Positions 4,137 through 22,476 of a stretch of 64,000 bases of DNA are shown piece after piece. The translations under genes and the position numbers were made by a program. The stretch is from the NCBI GenBank assembly GCA_000165345.1, contig CM000432.1, forward strand, positions 256,001 through 320,000, in the 5' to 3' direction. Every line of letters starts with the position of its first letter. Position 1 is the first letter of the stretch. The notes beneath the pieces were generated by a model that saw only the letters and a list, made by a program, of their open reading frames with translations, was not told the origin of the DNA and searched no databases.

Positions 4137-5792
4137 ATGAATCTCGGATCTAAGTACGAGAATTTGGAGATCCCAGAAAATATATATTCTCTTTTTGGAA
4201 GGAAGAAGTTAAAGACTAATAAAAATAGGCAAGTGGGGACCTTTGATACAGCAATTTTTAAGAATAAAAGAATACACCCTGTTTTGCAGAAAGACCATTT
4301 TAAGGCAGGCTTACTTTTTTATAAGAAAAAATATCATGAAGTGGTAACTCCAAGTCTACTTAAGAATGTATCCTTTAATAATAAAAAAAATTCTTCAATG
4401 ATAACTTCAATCTCAAGTCACAAAGGTTTGTTAGCAATAAGTAACACAAAAGGTTCTATTGGGATTTATAACATCAGTGAAGTTCTGAAATACAGAGACC
4501 TGAACAATGGTAAAGGCCCAGAATTAAAATTCCCATTAGGATATGTATTAACAGAAAAAGAACAAAACAGGGTAAAAAGAGGTCGAAGTTTTAAGCTGGA
4601 ACCTGTCAATTACTTAAACCCTGGAGAAAATGAAAATCATAGAGGGGTGATTTCTACTATTCATTTAAGTCCTTTTGATGGACAATTATTTATAACAAGT
4701 GGTTGGGATGGAAATATTAAAATATGGGATACTTTTGATGGAACCTGTGTATTTACTTTAAAATCTCGTAGTAAAATTAACTATTCGGTCATCAATCAAA
4801 CAAATCCAAATATTGTAGGCTCAGCTCTACAGAATGGAAATGTTGGGATTCTAGACTTGAGAATTGGAGGAGAATTCTCTCAGACATTATTTTTGGACAA
4901 AAAAACTACAAATCTCAATTTAGACAGACCAGATTCACCTGTTCTAAGCATAGCTTGGAGAACAGATTCTGAACACATTTTAGCCAGTACATCCCAGAAT
5001 GGTTTTATTCGACTTTGGGATCTCAGATTTGCACAACAACCTTTTCTATATATGAATAGTAATCTAACAGATTGGGAATTTGTACAAGAAACTAATAGTA
5101 TAACCCCTTTATTGATTAGACAACAAATGATCTTGGAGGAAGGGAAAGATATCCATACCAAACAAATTAATCAAGAAAGAGAACAAAAACAAATTTGGAA
5201 ACATCAAAATATGAAAATAGAGCTAAATGAAGACGAAAAGAAATTTCTCAAAATTGGTAAGGAAAGCAATTGTGAGGAAAAAAGTACCCCTAAAGAAAGT
5301 TCTAATGACTTCTTTAATTCTTATCAAAGCCATTTTGGAATTAGTGCACCCAAAACTATTGGCTATGCTCATGAAAGTGGAGTAGGGTTTTGTCAATTCC
5401 TTAAGAATGGTAGATACCTAATCTCCTCAGCTCATGATGGAACCATTAAACTTTGGAATTCTTTAAATGGAAAGAATTGTTATATTAATTATGATAATTT
5501 TGAATCTCAAACTTTCTGGGAGGGAGACGGACTAGTTGAACCAGGAATTGATGACCAAATTCAAAAATACTTTAAAAGGTTTTCAGTAGATTCTGGAGAT
5601 CAAGATACCTTATTTCATCCAAATGGAAATGATATAGGTATTTGGAATATTAGAACAGGTAAATGCTTAAAAAGACTTTCTGCACATATTAATGCTAAAT
5701 CTGTATCTGTAATTCACTTAAGTCACTACTCTAATTTAATGTTTTCGGGAGACCAAAGTGGATTTGTACATATATGGAATACCAGCTATTAG
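4137..5792 (+). CDS. WD40-repeat protein, CSA/ERCC8-like (DCAF family) candidate
   Basis: Continuous 551-aa ORF with WD repeats: HLSPFDGQLFITSGWDGNIKIWDT, ILASTSQNGFIRLWDLR, LISSAHDGTIKLWNSLNG, MFSGDQSGFVHIWNT. The order and spacing resemble human ERCC8 (…SGGSDGVIVLYDL…, [37 protein letters not shown]). The WD40 call is firm. The CSA assignment is tentative. Confidence 0.7.
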   Translation: MNLGSKYENLEIPENIYSLFGRKKLKTNKNRQVGTFDTAIFKNKRIHPVLQKDHFKAGLLFYKKKYHEVVTPSLLKNVSFNNKKNSSMITSISSHKGLLAISNTKGSIGIYNISEVLKYRDLNNGKGPELKFPLGYVLTEKEQNRVKRGRSFKLEPVNYLNPGENENHRGVISTIHLSPFDGQLFITSGWDGNIKIWDTFDGTCVFTLKSRSKINYSVINQTNPNIVGSALQNGNVGILDLRIGGEFSQTLFLDKKTTNLNLDRPDSPVLSIAWRTDSEHILASTSQNGFIRLWDLRFAQQPFLYMNSNLTDWEFVQETNSITPLLIRQQMILEEGKDIHTKQINQEREQKQIWKHQNMKIELNEDEKKFLKIGKESNCEEKSTPKESSNDFFNSYQSHFGISAPKTIGYAHESGVGFCQFLKNGRYLISSAHDGTIKLWNSLNGKNCYINYDNFESQTFWEGDGLVEPGIDDQIQKYFKRFSVDSGDQDTLFHPNGNDIGIWNIRTGKCLKRLSAHINAKSVSVIHLSHYSNLMFSGDQSGFVHIWNTSY

Positions 5793-5815
5793 TACTATTG
5801 TTGAGTAGTTTCTAG

Positions 5816-6691
5816 TCATATTAATCTACTTAGCTGTTGAATTGTATCATTTGGATTTATTACATTATGTCCAATAACTCTTTTATCATTATAGATTTCG
5901 TGATCATTTCCACCAGGGTATGTTTTATCCCCAAAGAAGTGGATTTCATCAAACTTATTCTCAACATGTCTTAAACAATATCTTTTGTCCCATCCCTAAA
6001 TGAAGAAGAAAGTTAAAAACAAATAAAATATCACTAAATTTGAATTCTAGAAATTTCTCGACTTACCTGTGGGAATACATCTATTGATATCTGCCCTCCA
6101 ATAGAATATTGAAGATCAAGATCTGAAAACTCTTTTGATAAATCCTGAATAAACTTTTCTCTGATTCCATTCTTTTTGTCAAGCTCAAAGAATTCTAATC
6201 TCTCATCATAGGAACAATTTCTTCCAATTGGGGAAATATTCAACATTCCTGTTCTATATTCAATAAATGTACCTCTTTTGATTGGAATATCTAGATCTGC
6301 AATGTATCTTAAACAGAAATTGACAAATCTCTTGATGTTATCTTCTCCCAAATGTTTTGAAATGCTTTCTGAACTCACTTTTACTCCTTCATCGTGAAAT
6401 ACAACTCCATTTTCACTAAATATATAGTGACTACAAGCTAGCTCTAAAGATCAATATTAAATAAATTCCATTATAGAATAAAAAAAAAGAAAAAGGAAAT
6501 AAATATACAGTAAACTTACCATTATTCTGTAATTGCTCACATATTTTACTATAATCTGACCCACTAACTACTCCTATCTTAACTTTGCTCTTCGCATTTT
6601 TAAGAGTCATTACCATGTCCTCCATTATTGGTTTTCGTGGTAAAGTGAGGGTCCCATCTAAATCAAACAAAAATAACTTTTTTGAATCCAT
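5816..6691 (-). CDS. Phosphomannomutase (PMM), 3 exons: complement(join(5816..5995,6067..6443,6520..6691))
   Basis: Exon 1 encodes [20 protein letters not shown]...[20 protein letters not shown] (HAD DxDGT motif). Exon 2 encodes ...[30 protein letters not shown]...[70 protein letters not shown]. Exon 3 encodes [59 protein letters not shown]. The whole is collinear with human PMM2. Introns are 71 and 76 nt with GTAAGT donors and tttag acceptors, and phases are consistent. Confidence 0.8.
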
Positions 6692-6824
6692 TTGATTATT
6701 TTTTGTGTGTAAACTCAATTTCTATTGAACATTTATCTTAAAAAATAATAATAATAATAAATATTAAGCTAAATTCAAGCTTATTTATTTTTGCAATTAA
6801 AAATAGTTACCATTTATTTTGATG

Positions 6825-6838
6825 CTTGGCGCCAAAAC
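6825..6838. promoter_or_regulatory. E2F-like site CTTGGCGCCAAAAC in the divergent PMM / MCM7 promoter
   Basis: GGCGCC palindrome flanked by T/A runs, about 225 bp upstream of the MCM7 ATG. MCM genes are classic E2F targets in other eukaryotes. The adjacent CATGCCGGTAT (6838-6850) is a reverse-orientation copy of the ATACCGG motif. Confidence 0.55.
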
Positions 6839-7064
6839 ATGCCGGTATGTAGGCTATTAAGCAAAAAAAGGCCGACCCCACACTACGATTAATATTATTA
6901 AGTAATGAGGATTTGAAATTAAGATAAAGTTGGTGAAAAATTATTAAAAGAAATTGCATTCAAGAGGTAATAAAATCAAAAAAAAGCAACGCTTAGAGAT
7001 CAGTCAGAACAATTGAATTACCCTTAGAAAGCGTATTTTAAAGTCCAAGTTGGAAAGTACTAAC

Positions 7065-9638
7065 ATGGCAATAGGAGTGGATAATGCTCACGAAAAAGTG
7101 AGAGCATACAATGATCACATTAAAGATATTCAGAATTTTTTGGAGAATTTTGAAGAATATAATGAGAATGAAAATTCAGGAGAAGATGTAGTAATGTCAA
7201 ATGCTAGGGAAGAAACGGAAAAGGAAGGATCTATTTGGAAACATAAAAAGTATATGAAATCCTTACAGAGTATATCTAATAGGGAAAAAAATGTTTTATA
7301 TATTGAAGTTGACGATATATTGAGTTTTGGAAAATACGAAAATAAAGTAACAGAGTACAATAATTTGGTTCATTCAATTTTGTCAAATACTAAGAGATAT
7401 GTACAATTGATTTATATAGCAGCAGATAATTGTTTACCGGTACCTACTCGTACAAATATGATTGATTTTAAATTAGAAGAGATGAATAATACTAAAAGAT
7501 CTGAATCAATGAAGACATGTAATGTTCCAGCTTATTTGAGATCCAATTTTGAAGTTTACATTAAAGCAAGTAAGAGAATGCCTATTACGCCTTTAAGAGA
7601 AGTTAGAGCAGAGTATGTTGGGGGTTATGTACAGGTAAATTGTATAGTTACCCGTGTTTCTAATGTGAAGCCAAGAATACAAGTAGTTAATTATACATGT
7701 GAAGTTTGTGGTTCTTCAATTTGGCAATCTGTAGAAGGTACTAATTATATGCCTTTGTCTGATTGTGAATCAAGCCAATGCAAGAATAACAAAAGAACTG
7801 GAAATTTGAAGTGTAATATTAAAGAAAGTAAATTTACTAAGTTCCAGGAGATTCGAATCCAGGAGCCTGCTGATCAAGTACCGACAGGTAATGTACCTAG
7901 AACAATGAAAGTTATAGCAATGGGAGAGAATACAAGAAAATTACTACCTGGTATGTATGTTACTATTTCAGGAGTATTTCTTCCAGTAGTAAAGGAAGGA
8001 TTCCAAGCATTCAGATCAGGTTTAACGGCAGAAACGTATTTTGAAGTTCATAATGTTCATAGTTATATTTCTAACAAAGAGGTTTCCTTGACAGATTATG
8101 AGAAGAAGCTGGTAAAGCAGATGGAAGCTGATGAGGAAAAGAAGAATAGAGAGGAAGCCCTTAACAGTTCAGGAGGTGGAGCCTATGAAGTTCTTCATTC
8201 ACAATTTTATGATAAACTAGCAAATAGTATTGCTCCTGAAATTTTCGGAATGCTGGATGTAAAGAAAGGTCTCCTTTTGCAGTTAATTGGAGGGGTTACA
8301 AATCAAATGAATGATGGGATGAAAATTAGAGGAAATATCCACATACTACTAATGGGAGATCCTGGAGTTGCAAAGAGCCAGCTCTTGAATCAAATCACAA
8401 AAATTGCTCCAAGATCAATTTATGCTACAGGAAAAGGTAGTAGTGGAGTAGGTTTAACAGCTTCCGTAGTTAGAGATCAGAACACCTCAGAAGTAACTCT
8501 GGAGGGAGGAGCCTTAGTTCTGGCAGATAACGGGATCTGTTGTATTGATGAGTTTGATAAAATGGATGAATCCGATAGAACAGCAATTCATGAAGTTATG
8601 GAGCAGCAAACAGTTTCTATTGCAAAAGCTGGAATTACTACAACTTTGAATGCAAGATCATCAGTCTTGGCAGCAGCAAACCCTGTTTCAGGAAGATACG
8701 ATCCCAGGAAATCCCCTGTGGCCAATATGAACCTCCCAGATTCTCTTCTTTCTCGTTTTGATCTTCAATTCTTACTTTTAGATATTCCTGATAAGGAGAA
8801 GGATCTTAAACTTGCTCGTCATGTACTTTACGTACATAAGAATGAAAAGGCTCCAAGCGGTGATTTTGAGCTTGATAGATCCTTATCTTCTATTCAGAGG
8901 CCTGGAATGGGAGTAAATCAAACAAGGAGCTCAGCAAAAAAAGTAAGAAGACGAAGAAACAATGATGATAGAGAAGAAGATGCTGAGAGTGAGAATCAAG
9001 ATAAATCCAAATCTGATCAAGAACAGAGGGTTTTTTCCACAGTATTTATGAGATACTTTATTGAAAAGGCTCAAACTTATACCCCATTGGTTCCAAAAGA
9101 ACTAGTTTCTGAGATTGTTGAACATTATGTTGAGCTCAGAAGAAGGGAAAAGATTGAACAGACTAGGGAAGATTGGAGAAAGACTTATACAACTCCAAGA
9201 ACTTTGTTAGGTATTTTGAGACTCTCTCAAGCCCTAGCTAGGCTCAGATTCAGTAATATAGTAGAAAGAGCTGATTTTGAGGAGGCAACCAGATTAATGA
9301 TTGAAAGCAAGAAGAGTGTTACAAAGCCAGGAAATACGAGTGGATTTTCAAATCCTGGAGCAAAGAATAAGAAGCACGATTTTAGAGACCAAATTATTGA
9401 GATTATTAAGGATTTACATAATAGACAAGCTGAGAGAACTACAAGAGGAGGTGAAGATGACGAATCAATGACTGATGGAATGATTGAGATTTCAATTTCT
9501 GAGATTGAAACAAGAATAGCTCATAGAGGGCTGCTTAAGCAGCAACTTGAGTTAGTTATTGATGAATACATAGAATTGGGAGTATTGTCCAAAAGTAAAG
9601 ATGGACAATTTATTTCATTTATCACAGATTTTTCGTAG
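7065..9638 (+). CDS. MCM7: DNA replication licensing factor MCM7
   Basis: Zinc finger CEVCGSS...CESSQC. Walker A GDPGVAKSQLL. Arginine finger region SRFDL. MCM7-specific stretches VRDQNTSEVTLEGGALVLADNGICCIDEFDKMDESDRTAIHEVMEQQTVSIAKAGITTTLNARSSVLAAANPVSGRYDPRKS, TPRTLLGILRLSQALARLRF and C-terminal ...DEYIELGVL align best with human MCM7 rather than MCM2-6. The ORF-track start at 7050 is TTG. The first ATG is at 7065 (MAIGVDN...). Confidence 0.9.
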   Translation: MAIGVDNAHEKVRAYNDHIKDIQNFLENFEEYNENENSGEDVVMSNAREETEKEGSIWKHKKYMKSLQSISNREKNVLYIEVDDILSFGKYENKVTEYNNLVHSILSNTKRYVQLIYIAADNCLPVPTRTNMIDFKLEEMNNTKRSESMKTCNVPAYLRSNFEVYIKASKRMPITPLREVRAEYVGGYVQVNCIVTRVSNVKPRIQVVNYTCEVCGSSIWQSVEGTNYMPLSDCESSQCKNNKRTGNLKCNIKESKFTKFQEIRIQEPADQVPTGNVPRTMKVIAMGENTRKLLPGMYVTISGVFLPVVKEGFQAFRSGLTAETYFEVHNVHSYISNKEVSLTDYEKKLVKQMEADEEKKNREEALNSSGGGAYEVLHSQFYDKLANSIAPEIFGMLDVKKGLLLQLIGGVTNQMNDGMKIRGNIHILLMGDPGVAKSQLLNQITKIAPRSIYATGKGSSGVGLTASVVRDQNTSEVTLEGGALVLADNGICCIDEFDKMDESDRTAIHEVMEQQTVSIAKAGITTTLNARSSVLAAANPVSGRYDPRKSPVANMNLPDSLLSRFDLQFLLLDIPDKEKDLKLARHVLYVHKNEKAPSGDFELDRSLSSIQRPGMGVNQTRSSAKKVRRRRNNDDREEDAESENQDKSKSDQEQRVFSTVFMRYFIEKAQTYTPLVPKELVSEIVEHYVELRRREKIEQTREDWRKTYTTPRTLLGILRLSQALARLRFSNIVERADFEEATRLMIESKKSVTKPGNTSGFSNPGAKNKKHDFRDQIIEIIKDLHNRQAERTTRGGEDDESMTDGMIEISISEIETRIAHRGLLKQQLELVIDEYIELGVLSKSKDGQFISFITDFS

Positions 9639-9692
9639 ATTAAAGAATAACAGAAGCTGAGATAACTAGAATAGGGAGTAAAAGTATTAGAA

Positions 9693-10892
9693 TTAGTAGA
9701 TTCGTGTATAGCATCTAAAATTATCTTGTACATTATTATTATGTTGGTTATAACTTTTATCAATTGTATCACCTAAGAATGAGTTCTTACTACTCCAAAA
9801 TCCGTATATTAAAGCTATGGACGGAATTGTCTCGGCAAAAAACGTATATAATGCAGTCCATACAGTGTTTAAAAGGATTTCTGGGTTAGAATTAACAATA
9901 CCAAATCCTCTAAGTAGGTAGTATAGACTAGAGATTAGTAATGAAATTGGGCATACTAGAGTAAGAACTTGAATCTTGAACCTGAGTTTATTAATAGAGG
10001 AACTATAGGCTTTATTATAAATAAATAATCCTGAGAGTATTGAACTATTAGAATTATTTGACGATGAAGCAGTATTAACAGTATTTGCTGTATTTGCAGA
10101 TGAATCCTGATTAAATTGTATAATAGATACCTGACCACTGTTCAACATTCCATATTGAAGGCAATTTGTACCTCTAACTTGATTAAAACCAGAATTAATA
10201 ATATTAGAGTTTGTATTCCATGTAAAATTGGCATTTTTCGAAATTAAATCTTTTTGCAAGTCCTTATGCATGGCTTGGCGCCTATTGATTTGTGTAAATA
10301 AAGATGATCCATAATGTACCCAAAAATAGGAAAATAATAAATGTAAAAGACCCATTAGAATATATAGAACATTAAAAAGTACGGGGAACTTTTGAGTAAT
10401 TAAAAGAGTAATGACTATTATTCCTCCACCAGTTAAGTATAATGCAAAATTGAGTAATGTGATGATTGTAAATTCAAAGCTTCTGGAATGTGTGAAAATT
10501 GAGCTCCATAATGCTATTACTATAGAGTAGGATGCAAGAAATACAATATTGATTAAATAATCAAACATTCTTAATATATTAAGTTTATTAATCAGTCCAT
10601 TTTCAATAAATTTGGGTAAAATATTTATTGCCAAATAAACAATAATATAAAGTAATCTGAAAATAATTCCAATAGAGAATGTACTTAGAAAATAAGGCCT
10701 AATTTTTATTCCATTGGTTTCAAATACATTTTCTGTTGTATTTGACTCTAATGCTGATAAAGATTGAAATACAGAAAGTGCACCAAGCACAAAGTAGATT
10801 AAAACCAACAAGGTATTTAAAAGCAATCCAAAAAAAGATGAGTGCCCGAATAATGAATCATCGAGTTGTGATTTGATAGGAGAGAAGTCCAT
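9693..10892 (-). CDS. Multi-pass (about 7 TM) membrane protein, family unassigned
   Basis: 399-aa ORF with real ATG. Several hydrophobic 20-residue segments (LLLNTLLVLIYFVLGALSVF, FSIGIIFRLLYIIVYLAINIL, IVFLASYSIVIALWSSIF, GGGIIVITLLITQKF, LYILMGLLHLLFSYFWV) are followed by an Asn/Ser-rich tail. It is convergent with MCM7, with stops 54 bp apart. Confidence 0.6.
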   Translation of the reverse strand: MDFSPIKSQLDDSLFGHSSFFGLLLNTLLVLIYFVLGALSVFQSLSALESNTTENVFETNGIKIRPYFLSTFSIGIIFRLLYIIVYLAINILPKFIENGLINKLNILRMFDYLINIVFLASYSIVIALWSSIFTHSRSFEFTIITLLNFALYLTGGGIIVITLLITQKFPVLFNVLYILMGLLHLLFSYFWVHYGSSLFTQINRRQAMHKDLQKDLISKNANFTWNTNSNIINSGFNQVRGTNCLQYGMLNSGQVSIIQFNQDSSANTANTVNTASSSNNSNSSILSGLFIYNKAYSSSINKLRFKIQVLTLVCPISLLISSLYYLLRGFGIVNSNPEILLNTVWTALYTFFAETIPSIALIYGFWSSKNSFLGDTIDKSYNQHNNNVQDNFRCYTRIY

Positions 10893-10916
10893 TTTTTTGT
10901 TATAATATTAGTGGAT

Positions 10917-10930
10917 GCATGTGCAATGAA
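10917..10930. promoter_or_regulatory. GATGCATGTGCAATG (TGCATG-type) motif just upstream of the membrane-protein ATG
   Basis: GCATG/TGCA palindromic core, recurring in several promoters in this window (see 40082, 27341, 31615, 43967). Confidence 0.3.
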
Positions 10931-11342
10931 ATCTTTATTTCCTGTTCATTCCAATCTTTAGTATATTTAAAATGGCTTAATAATTGTACATAAAATTTGA
11001 AAACTCATTCGTTAAATATTAAAGAGTAATAAGATATTTCTCTTAATATATTTAAATTTGAATTGATTTATCCAATTATTTTATTTTAAATAGTTTTGTA
11101 TCATTAATTTAAAATTGTGTGTGCAAATAAATAAGTGGTTTATACAAATAATATACCCATTAATTTCATTCCATTAAATATTTTTCTTCATTCAAAAAGT
11201 GGAATAATTGGAAAATAATTACTTAATAAAAGTAATTAAATCCCTAAAATTATTGGGTTGCACAAATACTTTCAATCATTATTTCATTCCACTTAATGTT
11301 TATATTAACATGAAAATATTAGAAAATAACTCGACTAAAATA

Positions 11343-11366
11343 TGGCGCCAAAGCGCTTTGGCGCCA
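11343..11366. promoter_or_regulatory. Perfect 24-bp palindrome TGGCGCCAAAGCGCTTTGGCGCCA (double E2F-like site)
   Basis: Its reverse complement is identical to itself. Two TTTGGCGCCA half-sites around a central AGCGCT. Sits in the divergent promoter between the membrane-protein gene (start 10892) and the kinase gene (start 11836). The 70-aa ORF 11208..11420 in the track simply reads through it. Confidence 0.6.
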
Positions 11367-11835
11367 AAACGAGCGGTATCTAAAAAAGAAAATGCATGCA
11401 ATATTAAAGAAAAAAAATAATGTATGGCAAAATTTGAGGAAACAAAAATTAAATAGAATTAATAAGTATTAAAGAAGTAATAGTTGTTTTAGATATTTAA
11501 TTATTATTTATTATTAAATCAAAATTTTTATAATTGAAGAGGAAATAAGTATAAAATATTTGACTAATAATGAATAAGATTTGAAAGAAAAGGGAAATAT
11601 AGATCAAGTTTCTAATAAATCTGGCCTTATTTATTTCAGATTTTTACATTCTTTGTTATAAAATAATTCTTAATTAGTATTACATATTACTATTGCAAAA
11701 TTAATTAATTAATAATTAATTAAAGTTATAAATATTAGTAGAAACGACTTCTGGAATATATTAAAAGTAAGGGAGTGGTTTTCTTTTTTCTTTTTTTTTT
11801 GAAATAACTAAATTATTATTGGAATATTAGAAGTT

Positions 11836-12789
11836 ATGGAACTAAGTGAAACAAAATTGGAAGATATAAATCACAATTCTGAGTTTAATAAAGATAATTA
11901 TTATAATGAAAAAAATAATTTGAATCATAATTTGGAGGTAAACAATTTAGATATTCAAGAAGTAAATAATAGAAGAAGTTCTACAAGATGTAGCATTAAA
12001 ATGAGAACATCTTTGGTAGATGACCTTCATCAATTAATGCCAAGAGTAGTAACATTAGAAAGAAATGATCAAGGTCAAATTAAATATAATTTAAAAGTTC
12101 CTGCTGGAGAATTAATAAACTCAAGTCAATTTGAATTTGTTAATTTAATTAGTTCAGGAGGATTTGGTGTTGTTAATCTTTGTAAAAGTAATAATCTGGG
12201 AAATTTACCCAATGGAAGAGAAATTGCAGTAAAATTATTTACAAGAGGAGGTAAAGAAGGTGGGAGTAATCAACTTTCAGATGAAAGACTAAAATCAATA
12301 GAATCTGAGTTAAATTATGTTCGTATGTTTAAGCATCCAAATATTATAGAATATTATGGTATTTTAAATCCATCAACTGGTCAAATAGGATTTGCAATGG
12401 AATATTTGGATGGTGGAACAGTTTTTGAAGTTTTATATTCTAAAATTAATATTATTCCTTTAGAAATTAGGAAGATGTGGTGTGTACAATTAGTTAAAGC
12501 TGTGGCTTATTTACATGAAGGATGCGCTCCTTATAGATTTATACATAGAGATATTAAAACAATTAATATGTTAATCAATAGAAAGGATCTTAGCATTCGA
12601 TTATGCGACTTTGGTAATGTTAGAGAGAGAACTTTTTCGTATTACAGACTAAATTATATGGGGACAGTAAGATATCTCCCCAGATCAGCAAAGTGGTTCA
12701 TTATTATGAAAAACAGAGTATGGCAATGGTCTGGAGATGAGATTTTGAAGTGGGATCCCTTATCAAAATTTAATGATGATAATCTTTAA
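11836..12789 (+). CDS. Ser/Thr protein kinase (STE/MAP3K-like catalytic domain), C-lobe apparently interrupted
   Basis: Gly-loop GGFGVVNLCK, VAIK-type lysine REIAVKLF, HRDIKTINML catalytic loop, DFG. After subdomain VIII/IX (GTVRYLP...VWQWSGDEIL) the frame stops at 12789. However 12791-12907 encodes, in the +1 frame, ...LIFSTCLKKCVKMSTTDPNMRPNSQHY* (subdomain XI-like DPxxRP). Another frame gives PPEIPSFF across a T6 run at 12826-12833. See the finding on this region. Confidence 0.7.
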   Translation: MELSETKLEDINHNSEFNKDNYYNEKNNLNHNLEVNNLDIQEVNNRRSSTRCSIKMRTSLVDDLHQLMPRVVTLERNDQGQIKYNLKVPAGELINSSQFEFVNLISSGGFGVVNLCKSNNLGNLPNGREIAVKLFTRGGKEGGSNQLSDERLKSIESELNYVRMFKHPNIIEYYGILNPSTGQIGFAMEYLDGGTVFEVLYSKINIIPLEIRKMWCVQLVKAVAYLHEGCAPYRFIHRDIKTINMLINRKDLSIRLCDFGNVRERTFSYYRLNYMGTVRYLPRSAKWFIIMKNRVWQWSGDEILKWDPLSKFNDDNL

Positions 12790-13036
12790 TTAGTTGATAG
12801 AGAAGGAGTCCTCCAGAAATACCCTCATTTTTTCCACGTGTTTAAAAAAGTGTGTCAAAATGTCTACAACTGACCCTAATATGAGACCAAATAGTCAGCA
12901 TTACTAAGAGATGTTATTACACTTGACATGAAGTATTAGAAATCTAAAGCTTGGTAGGCTTGATAAGTACCCAAAAGTCTGATAAAATGTTGCTAATATT
13001 TGAACCAAGTATTTGATAATAGCACAAGTAAGCAAG

Positions 13037-13498
13037 TCATCTCTTTTTCGTTCCTCGCATACTTATACTGATACTAATACTACTGTTACTACAACAACAA
13101 CTACCACTACAACAACAACTACAACAACAACTACTACTACCACTACAGCAACTACTTCTACCACTACTACCACTGTTACCATTGCTATCACTGCTACCGC
13201 TGCTACTGCTACCACTGCTACTGCTACCACTGCTACTGCTACCATTGCTACTGCTACCATTGCTACTGCTACCATTGCTACTGCTACCATTGCTACTGCT
13301 ACCATTGCTACTGCTACCATTGCTACTGCTACCACTGCTACTGCTACCACTGCTGCCACTATCATATTTGCCTCTCGCTCTTCCCATTCTCCTCCTCATC
13401 TTCCTCCTTTTCATCCTCCTTTTCATCCTCCCCCTCCCCTCTTTTGCTCCCCTTTCCTCTCTTCCAGGATTGTTAATAACTAAAATCATTTCAAGCAT
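13037..13498 (-). CDS. Candidate small basic/Ser-rich repeat protein (153 aa); coding strand uncertain
   Basis: The minus strand has a genuine ATG (complement 13496..13498), an Arg/Lys-rich N-terminus (RMKRRMKRRKMRRRMGRARGK), then (SSSNG)n and Cys/Ser runs, and it fits the convergent gene layout. The plus-strand alternative (poly-Thr, Pro-rich tail) has no ATG (the track start is TTG) and an upstream in-frame stop. Confidence 0.3.
   Translation of the reverse strand: MLEMILVINNPGREERGAKEGRGRMKRRMKRRKMRRRMGRARGKYDSGSSGSSSSGSSSNGSSSNGSSSNGSSSNGSSSNGSSSNGSSSSGSSSSGSSSSGSSDSNGNSGSSGRSSCCSGSSSCCCSCCCSGSCCCSNSSISISISMRGTKKR
13196..13360. repeat. 15-bp tandem repeat ACC(A/C)(T/C)TGCTACTGCT x about 11, with 6 perfect consecutive copies at 13241-13330
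   Basis: Read directly from the sequence. Embedded in a broader ACT/ACC/ACA/GCT triplet-repeat tract (about 13040-13370). Confidence 0.9.
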
Positions 13499-13753
13499 TT
13501 TAATTTGGCTATTATTAATTATAATTGATCCAATATTTCGATATGGTATTTAACTATTTATTTTGAAAAGAAGAAAAAATATTAACTTTTCAATCTGTTG
13601 GATTCAATTTCTCATTACTTAATATATTTCTAATTATATTAATAATATTAACAATTTTAGGGTCAGAAATTTATACCATAAATTGAAATTATTTTTGCAT
13701 GTACTAATAAATTATTACGCTTATTATTTACAATGTCAAAAAAAAAAAGCGAA

Positions 13754-13766
13754 GTAGCGCCAAACC
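13754..13766. promoter_or_regulatory. E2F-like half-site GTAGCGCCAAACC
   Basis: GC island in the AT-rich intergenic region between the 13498 (-) start and the 14169 (+) start. Confidence 0.35.
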
Positions 13767-14168
13767 TGTTTTAATAGTTATTTTTTGACACGTAATAAAA
13801 AATTATTAAAACAATAATCGATTAAAATAGTATTTGACTTACAAAGTTAGGCAGCGAACAAGAAAAGCTATAATTCAGACATTTGAATATTAAAGTTTAG
13901 TTTTCTTCATATTCTCTTTCTTTTTAATAATTGTTTGGATTAATCGATCAACAATAAAAGTTGAAATGAATTGATAAAGGTTTATAAGATTTTTATTGAA
14001 TAAAGGAGGAATATTTGAATTTTATCAACTTTGAGGGAAGACAAATTTTCTTTATATATTTTGCCTTTAGATTTAAACAATTTTAAATTAATAAAGCTGA
14101 TTATTTGAATAAAGTGGAAGAAAGTTTTCTTTCTTTTATTTAATTAATTTAGTGGAATATAACTTAAA

Positions 14169-22476
<8,308 letters not shown>

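Follow-up and report, generated by a model that had tools for sequence, protein, structure and literature searches.

Variable short repeats have been described in Cryptosporidium in both coding and non-coding settings. The poly-Ser repeat of gp60 (gp40/15) is triplet-based and length-polymorphic, and lies in a verified, expressed gene for a surface-glycoprotein antigen. The C. parvum MLVA loci, including cgd4_2350_796, cgd8_4440_NC_506, MM19 and MSF, carry repeats of at least 5 bp that vary between isolates (PMC9043402); they are presumed to originate by slippage and unequal exchange, and cgd8_4440_NC_506 is non-coding. Published criteria for such loci are perfect, homogeneous repeats without internal variants and fully conserved, unique flanks (PMC9043402). 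Expandable repeats of the CAG/CTG type and repeats collapsed in first-generation assemblies offer further points of comparison. The array analysed here shares with gp60 its triplet basis, its variable length and a possible Ser-rich reading, and with the MLVA loci its unit size class, its variation and its presumed origin. With CAG/CTG-type repeats it shares a strand (AGC/AGT/GGT) predicted to form an imperfect hairpin with a mismatch at every third base. A literature search by accession, by repeat-unit k-mer and by the gene names cgd4_980 to cgd4_1010 found no paper describing the locus, and the sole k-mer match was a TP14 primer.

The array lies on C. parvum chromosome 4, between the kinase gene cgd4_990 and a gene for an Npa1/Urb1-like protein. 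We analysed it in a 64,000-nucleotide stretch of the 2004 Iowa II reference (hereafter the window, to which all feature coordinates refer) and compared this with newer assemblies, including CpBGF (GCA_035232765.1), a telomere-to-telomere assembly of C. parvum IOWA II with an annotation curated using Iso-Seq (PMC12179316). In CpBGF, one of two assemblies with genes identical to that for the WD-repeat protein of the window, the locus sits on chromosome 4 at ~837-839 kb (CP141121.1). Pfam searches identified WDR36/Utp21-like, MCM7, protein kinase, Npa1/Urb1-like and eIF3g genes in the window. The identifier cgd4_990 was assigned from the gene order after MCM7, which is cgd4_970 (PMC1779779), and from the kinome paper, according to which this kinase has no orthologues outside Cryptosporidium (PMC3227725). 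The minus strand at 9693-10892 encodes a genus-restricted 399-aa protein, which gene order identifies as cgd4_980; it lacks any Pfam domain and is kept in every Cryptosporidium species examined. The features relevant to the locus are listed below, with units coded by their variable codon (I, ATT; T, ACT; A, GCT).

11836-12982, plus strand: Ser/Thr kinase gene cgd4_990 (Pfam Pkinase)
12652-13041: low-quality patch of the 2004 assembly beside the repeat, 390 bp, with ~35 single-base indels and 8 substitutions relative to CpBGF
12983-13068: block A, the unique 3' flank of the kinase gene, 86 nt in the window and 87 nt in other assemblies
13037-13498, minus strand: open reading frame (ORF) of 153 aa, with an Arg/Lys-rich head (from the purine tract), (SSSNG)n and Ser/Cys runs
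13069-13358: triplet-periodic compound repeat segment, 290 nt in the window
13196-13360: 15-bp minisatellite, variable codons A T T I I I I I I T followed by a degenerate end unit
13241-13330: perfect core of the 15-bp minisatellite
13378-13466, plus strand: pyrimidine tract, 89 nt
13695-13972, plus strand: conserved upstream region of the Npa1/Urb1-like gene (ATG at 14169)

The 15-bp unit has the form ACC-[ATT/ACT/GCT]-GCTACTGCT, with variation confined to the second codon except in the degenerate last unit, ACCACTGCTGCCACT. The original prediction, made from the window alone, had described 11 tandem units that included six identical consecutive copies. Both counts were reproduced: 11 units are in register, and direct reading and a script located six perfect tandem copies of ACCATTGCTACTGCT, starting at 13241, 13256, 13271, 13286, 13301 and 13316 and nowhere else in the 64-kb window. 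Tandem Repeats Finder (TRF) placed the array at 13172-13354 (period 15, 12.0 copies, 94% matches), and its score of 290 was the highest of any tandem repeat in the window, the runner-up scoring 156. With 11-12 head-to-tail copies of a 15-bp unit, the array falls within the usual definition of a minisatellite or VNTR (roughly 10-100 bp per unit). To its left, 13059-13171 consists of degenerate (ACN)n with TRF periods of 3, 6, 12 and 18. The score of 156 belongs to an (AAT)n-rich array at 18982-19122 inside the Npa1/Urb1-like ORF, where it specifies an extended poly-Asn run of a kind unusual among Cryptosporidium proteins; its length, too, could vary.

To the right of the array, pyrimidines make up 83 of the 89 nt of the CT tract (C45 T38 A5 G1), matching the earlier description of an almost G-free stretch of about 90 nt, and a 12-bp repeat, TCCTCCTTTTCA, runs through 3.5 copies within it. 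This is the only pyrimidine tract in the window at a length of at least 60 nt and a purity of at least 93%; shuffled sequence contained none. Only one more homopurine or homopyrimidine stretch reaches 60 nt, a purine tract at 18020-18089 that is coding and Glu-rich in the Npa1/Urb1-like protein, in contrast to the non-conserved reading of the tract beside the array.

Array length differs between the four C. parvum assemblies compared. GCA_048859185.1 contains 7 units (order AT-I3-T-end) and the window contains 11 (ATT-I6-T-end), while GCA_031892065.1 and CpBGF each contain 37. The order in GCA_031892065.1 is ATT-(I5 AATT)x3-I5-T-end, a 135-bp higher-order repeat to which TRF assigned 38 copies and a score of 944; in CpBGF, it is ATT-I10-AATT-I18-T-end. 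The two 37-unit arrays are thus equal in length and different in unit order (both locus extracts, 4370-4942), a difference that could come from true gene conversion or from polishing with short reads that homogenised one array. The earlier claim of a slippage-prone, length-polymorphic array is borne out by these counts. An identical repeat number, named at the time as the outcome that would count against it, is contradicted between assemblies by the range of 7-37 units in C. parvum and by differences among C. hominis assemblies. Copy number therefore varies within the species at the level of assemblies, with the proviso that some of the differences may be assembly artefacts. The array is too long for short reads to span, and in ~30 independent short-read (Logan) assemblies every contig stops inside the triplet repeat.

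The count of 11 units in the 2004 reference is itself open to doubt. The window shows zero differences from CpBGF at 4137-12650 and at 13361-15370, and all differences cluster at 12652-13041. This patch cuts cgd4_990 from 392 to 317 aa: the kinase ORF in the window is frameshifted and ends at 12789, its true stop codon is the TGA at 12980-12982, and newer assemblies encode 392 aa. The 317-aa ORF matches EAK87640.1/XP_625700.1 (C. parvum Iowa II) at 100% identity; neither it nor the 153-aa minus-strand ORF has an exact entry in the gene-position index. Read ends of low quality, entering a repeat that is hard to assemble, would leave such an error pattern. The position of the patch beside the repeat, together with the 37 units of two newer assemblies, makes the 11 copies unreliable, and we infer that the Iowa II array was probably collapsed in the 2004 Sanger assembly, or shortened by clone deletion, and is under-represented there. 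Alternatively, the 11-unit and 7-unit arrays could be genuine shorter alleles.

To compare the locus among species, we proceeded from kinase orthologues through their cluster members to the orthologous kinase-to-Npa1 intervals. Each interval was divided into block A (87 nt), the triplet-periodic segment, block B (from the CT tract to the minus-strand ATG) and block C (~650 nt, to the Npa1 ATG). The repeat segment measures 680 nt in the telomere-to-telomere C. parvum assembly and 290 nt in the window, 395 nt in C. tyzzeri, 175 and 182 nt in two versions in C. hominis, and 14 nt (TACTTCTACCAATG) in C. meleagridis. The amplified unit also differs: it is the 15-bp unit in C. parvum and a 9-bp unit, ACTGCTACC, in C. 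tyzzeri and C. hominis, with an additional 18-bp unit amplified in C. hominis. Block A was found in C. parvum, C. tyzzeri, C. hominis and C. meleagridis, and the CT tract is likewise present in the latter three species, with indels that are not multiples of three. Block A, the repeat and block B have no counterpart in C. ubiquitum, C. canis or one further Cryptosporidium species; the interval spans only ~710-740 bp in C. ubiquitum and C. canis, and the contig of the further species ends inside it.

Within C. hominis, assemblies differ from one another. The 18-bp unit is present in ~3.4 copies in three assemblies (locus extracts 6180-6640) and ~4.4 copies in a fourth (4180-4680), a 5-nt partial unit, ACCAC, occurs in the three, and the CT tract shows a 36-nt difference between assemblies that includes extra CTCCCC repeats.

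Between C. parvum and C. meleagridis, identity is 84% in block A, 88% in block B, 87% in the intergenic block C and 94% in the kinase coding sequence, values at which the flanks diverge like intergenic DNA. On these comparisons, the locus would be a young hotspot that expands independently in each species, apparently seeded beside a polypyrimidine tract already present in the common ancestor with C. meleagridis.

The repeat starts 87 nt past the kinase stop codon, a TGA directly followed by TAA, and the locus lies ~670 bp upstream of the Npa1/Urb1-like start. Four motifs in the region upstream of that gene are invariant across six Cryptosporidium species: TTGCATGT (13695-13702), GCGCCAA (13757-13763), TTTTTTGACA (13781-13790) and TTGAAATGAATT (13961-13972). 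The GCGCCAA motif is E2F-like, and the TTTTTTGACA motif extends as TTTTTTGACA(CGT). All four are likely promoter or 5'UTR elements, and they mark the right-hand edge of the fast-evolving, unstable zone. Downstream, two plus-strand ORFs at 14169-19757 (1862 aa) and 19729-22476 (915 aa) overlap by 29 nt, one with a weak DOCK_N match and the other with a NopRA1 match. Newer assemblies have a single product of 2764-2768 aa in their place, and the split is probably another frameshift error of the 2004 sequence or a split gene model.

Both strands of the repeat can be read as long ORFs. Across the repeat segment, five of the six frames (all three on the plus strand and two of the three on the minus strand) are free of stops, a consequence of the ACN/GCT triplet composition that makes ORF length uninformative. 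The original prediction had called the coding strand ambiguous. It was correct that both strands are open, including a plus-strand Thr/Ala/Ile frame without an ATG (listed from a TTG, 13013-13483) and the 153-aa minus-strand ORF with a real ATG, but the cause is trivial and compositional.

Annotations and homology searches were examined for signs of a product. Annotation pipelines disagree on the minus-strand ORF, giving 298, 148, 175, 100 or 74 aa. The protein-product list of the Iso-Seq-curated CpBGF annotation, in which ncRNA or UTR entries would not appear, has no coding sequence at the locus, and no gene is called here in the annotations of C. meleagridis, C. ubiquitum or C. canis. A homology search with the 298-aa ORF gave zero matches. 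The 153-aa ORF gave 34 phmmer matches, of which the three examined were rejected as homologues, their similarity being limited to a pentapeptide (xxxNG) or to low-complexity Ser-Gly repeats, for example (DDANG)n and (SGSNG)n. The C. parvum ORFs contain no Pfam domain, and a 'Collagen' match of the C. tyzzeri ORF was set aside as an artefact of GSS periodicity, which places Gly at every third residue. An Rfam search found no known structured RNA (best match 22 bits against a threshold of 60, E = 0.75).

We interpret the locus, with a probability of about 0.7, as a compound minisatellite that is lineage-specific and non-coding and occupies the 3' flank of cgd4_990, upstream of the Npa1/Urb1-like promoter; its ORFs are then probably by-products of composition. 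An unlikely alternative is that the minus-strand ORF is a real, very young and possibly de novo gene confined to the C. parvum/C. tyzzeri/C. hominis clade. Its transcription would be divergent from the Npa1/Urb1 promoter region, and changes in repeat number would modulate the protein. The Arg/Lys-rich head of the product would come from the purine tract; a hypervariable body of (SSSNG)n/(GSS)n and a tail of Ser and Cys would follow. Predicted peptides include MTCLLVLLSNTWFKY at the C-terminus and semi-tryptic peptides of the GKYDSGSSGSSSSGSSSNGSSSNG type. Several observations favour such a gene over a non-coding repeat: the same Ser/Gly frame is open from an ATG in C. parvum (148-298 aa), C. 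tyzzeri (175 aa) and one C. hominis isolate (117 aa), repeat-unit lengths within C. parvum and C. tyzzeri are all multiples of three, the 670 bp that separate the ORF from the divergent Npa1 gene would fit a shared promoter region, and several genome annotations, from four pipelines, treat the ORF as a gene. C. meleagridis also has an ATG-initiated minus-strand ORF (61 aa); it uses a different ATG and a different frame, however, lacks the repeat, and turns the purine tract into a Glu/Asp-rich instead of an Arg/Lys-rich sequence. With five of six frames open, openness is uninformative. Neither start, frame nor stop is conserved in sister species; a gp60-like coding repeat would be expected to conserve all three. 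The first ATG of the C. parvum ORF is ATT in C. tyzzeri, C. hominis and C. meleagridis; ATG-CGA in C. parvum corresponds to ATG-TGA in C. tyzzeri and C. hominis, where the last 22 codons are lost; and the ACCAC partial unit shifts three C. hominis assemblies into a Val/Ala product of 100 aa, while the fourth stays in the Ser/Gly frame. The between-species alignment contains indels of 1, 7 and 13 nt. Changes in the head of this lineage-restricted ORF between C. parvum and C. tyzzeri are mostly nonsynonymous (3 nonsynonymous and 1 synonymous, against 6 and 16 in the adjacent kinase; small numbers, but unambiguous in direction), with no sign of purifying selection. Its poly-Cys runs make a real protein implausible, searches found neither a signal peptide nor a domain or homologue, and the curated CpBGF annotation leaves the ORF out.

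Coding on the plus strand is far less probable. Poly-Thr tracts are typical of Cryptosporidium mucin-like proteins, and the Thr frame, open for 159-280 codons, resembles them in content; its poly-Thr/(ATIAT)n and Pro-rich stretch could be an exon belonging to such a glycoprotein, or extend the kinase through splicing. A mucin-like gene would have a start codon and a signal peptide upstream of its Thr-rich domain, and this frame has neither: it lacks an ATG and meets in-frame stops directly upstream, right after the TGA-TAA of the kinase. Candidate donor and acceptor sites for a spliced extension led into frames that hit stops or gave a Leu-rich product. The segment is missing from C. meleagridis, C. 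ubiquitum and C. canis, no annotation considered here has a plus-strand gene at the locus, and kinase length stays within 392-399 aa, also across species without the repeat. The missing ATG, the upstream stops and the constant kinase length effectively exclude a plus-strand coding sequence. It is also doubtful, though less so, that the element is non-coding and functional, as a 3'UTR or terminator of cgd4_990, a lncRNA or structure-forming DNA (hairpin or triplex) affecting transcription termination, replication or recombination. Its proximity to the kinase stop codon (87 nt), the retention of the CT tract in four species and the strong hairpins predicted for the purine-rich strand would be consistent with such a role. 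The locus is also probably transcribed, given that 88.6% of the CpBGF genome lies in annotated transcripts (PMC12179316). Against this, the flanks and the tract diverge at the intergenic rate with indels accumulating freely, and C. ubiquitum, C. canis and one further species do without the element altogether. In addition, no Rfam match was obtained, and the searchable lncRNA supplement has no entry for cgd4_980, cgd4_990 or cgd4_1000.

For a non-coding minisatellite, the data suggest the following history. A short seed rich in ACT/ACC/GCT would have lain beside the older polypyrimidine tract, a state retained in C. meleagridis. Within the C. parvum/C. tyzzeri/C. hominis clade, the seed would then have expanded independently, with each lineage amplifying its own units (9, 18 and 15 bp). 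Expansion may have proceeded by replication slippage, aided by CAG-like hairpins of the purine-rich strand, and by unequal exchange during the obligate sexual cycle; out-of-register exchange would account for the 135-bp higher-order pattern. In fold predictions, the minus strand of the array as single-stranded DNA forms a long, imperfect CAG-like hairpin (-27.2 kcal/mol, z = -5.6) that no shuffled sequence matched, and the plus strand does not fold. Such hairpins would be expected to favour slippage and are a plausible driver of strand-asymmetric slippage. Nothing in the data suggests selection on array length.

The significance of the locus is practical rather than conceptual, and its nature will not surprise a specialist. 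The widely used 2004 Iowa II reference misrepresents it, with 11 instead of 37 units and with cgd4_990 truncated by base errors; mapping, variant calls and gene models in this region should therefore use long-read assemblies. Automated calls of a 'hypothetical protein' of 74-298 aa within the repeat are probably erroneous. The array is a candidate high-resolution marker for long-read typing, assemblies differing in copy number as well as in how the unit variants are ordered, and its growth from 14 nt to 680 nt among very closely related species provides an evolutionary example. Were the minus-strand ORF a newborn gene after all, it would encode a protein whose length varies several-fold between isolates and would illustrate de novo gene birth through repeat expansion in a compact parasite genome.

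Set against the known systems, the array departs from each in particular respects. The analogy to the gp60 Ser repeat drawn in the original prediction does not hold, since no reading frame is conserved in start, frame and stop among C. parvum, C. tyzzeri, C. hominis and C. meleagridis and CpBGF has no coding sequence here; where gp60 is an expressed antigen gene, this locus offers no conserved frame, signal peptide, domain or homologue. Compared with pure trinucleotide CAG/CTG-type repeats, its 15-bp unit is composite, and no expansion threshold or phenotype is known. Like collapsed repeats in first-generation assemblies, it has fewer units in the Sanger assembly (11) than in two long-read assemblies (37) and a cluster of base errors directly beside it; unlike them, it may represent a genuine shorter allele in the 2004 DNA. 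The array is not among the seven loci of the MLVA scheme, and the window contains no sites for the primers of cgd4_2350_796, which represents chromosome 4 in that scheme. In contrast to the MLVA loci, the array mixes unit variants (ATT/ACT/GCT) and is embedded in other variable triplet repeats, and its length of up to 555 bp (690 bp with flanking repeats) is awkward for fragment sizing. Three interspersed unit variants, a variable (ACN)n stretch on the left and an indel-prone CT tract on the right place it outside the MLVA-grade criteria (PMC9043402). Undescribed in the literature searched, the array is most likely an ordinary feature of the same kind as the VNTR loci used for MLVA in C. parvum.
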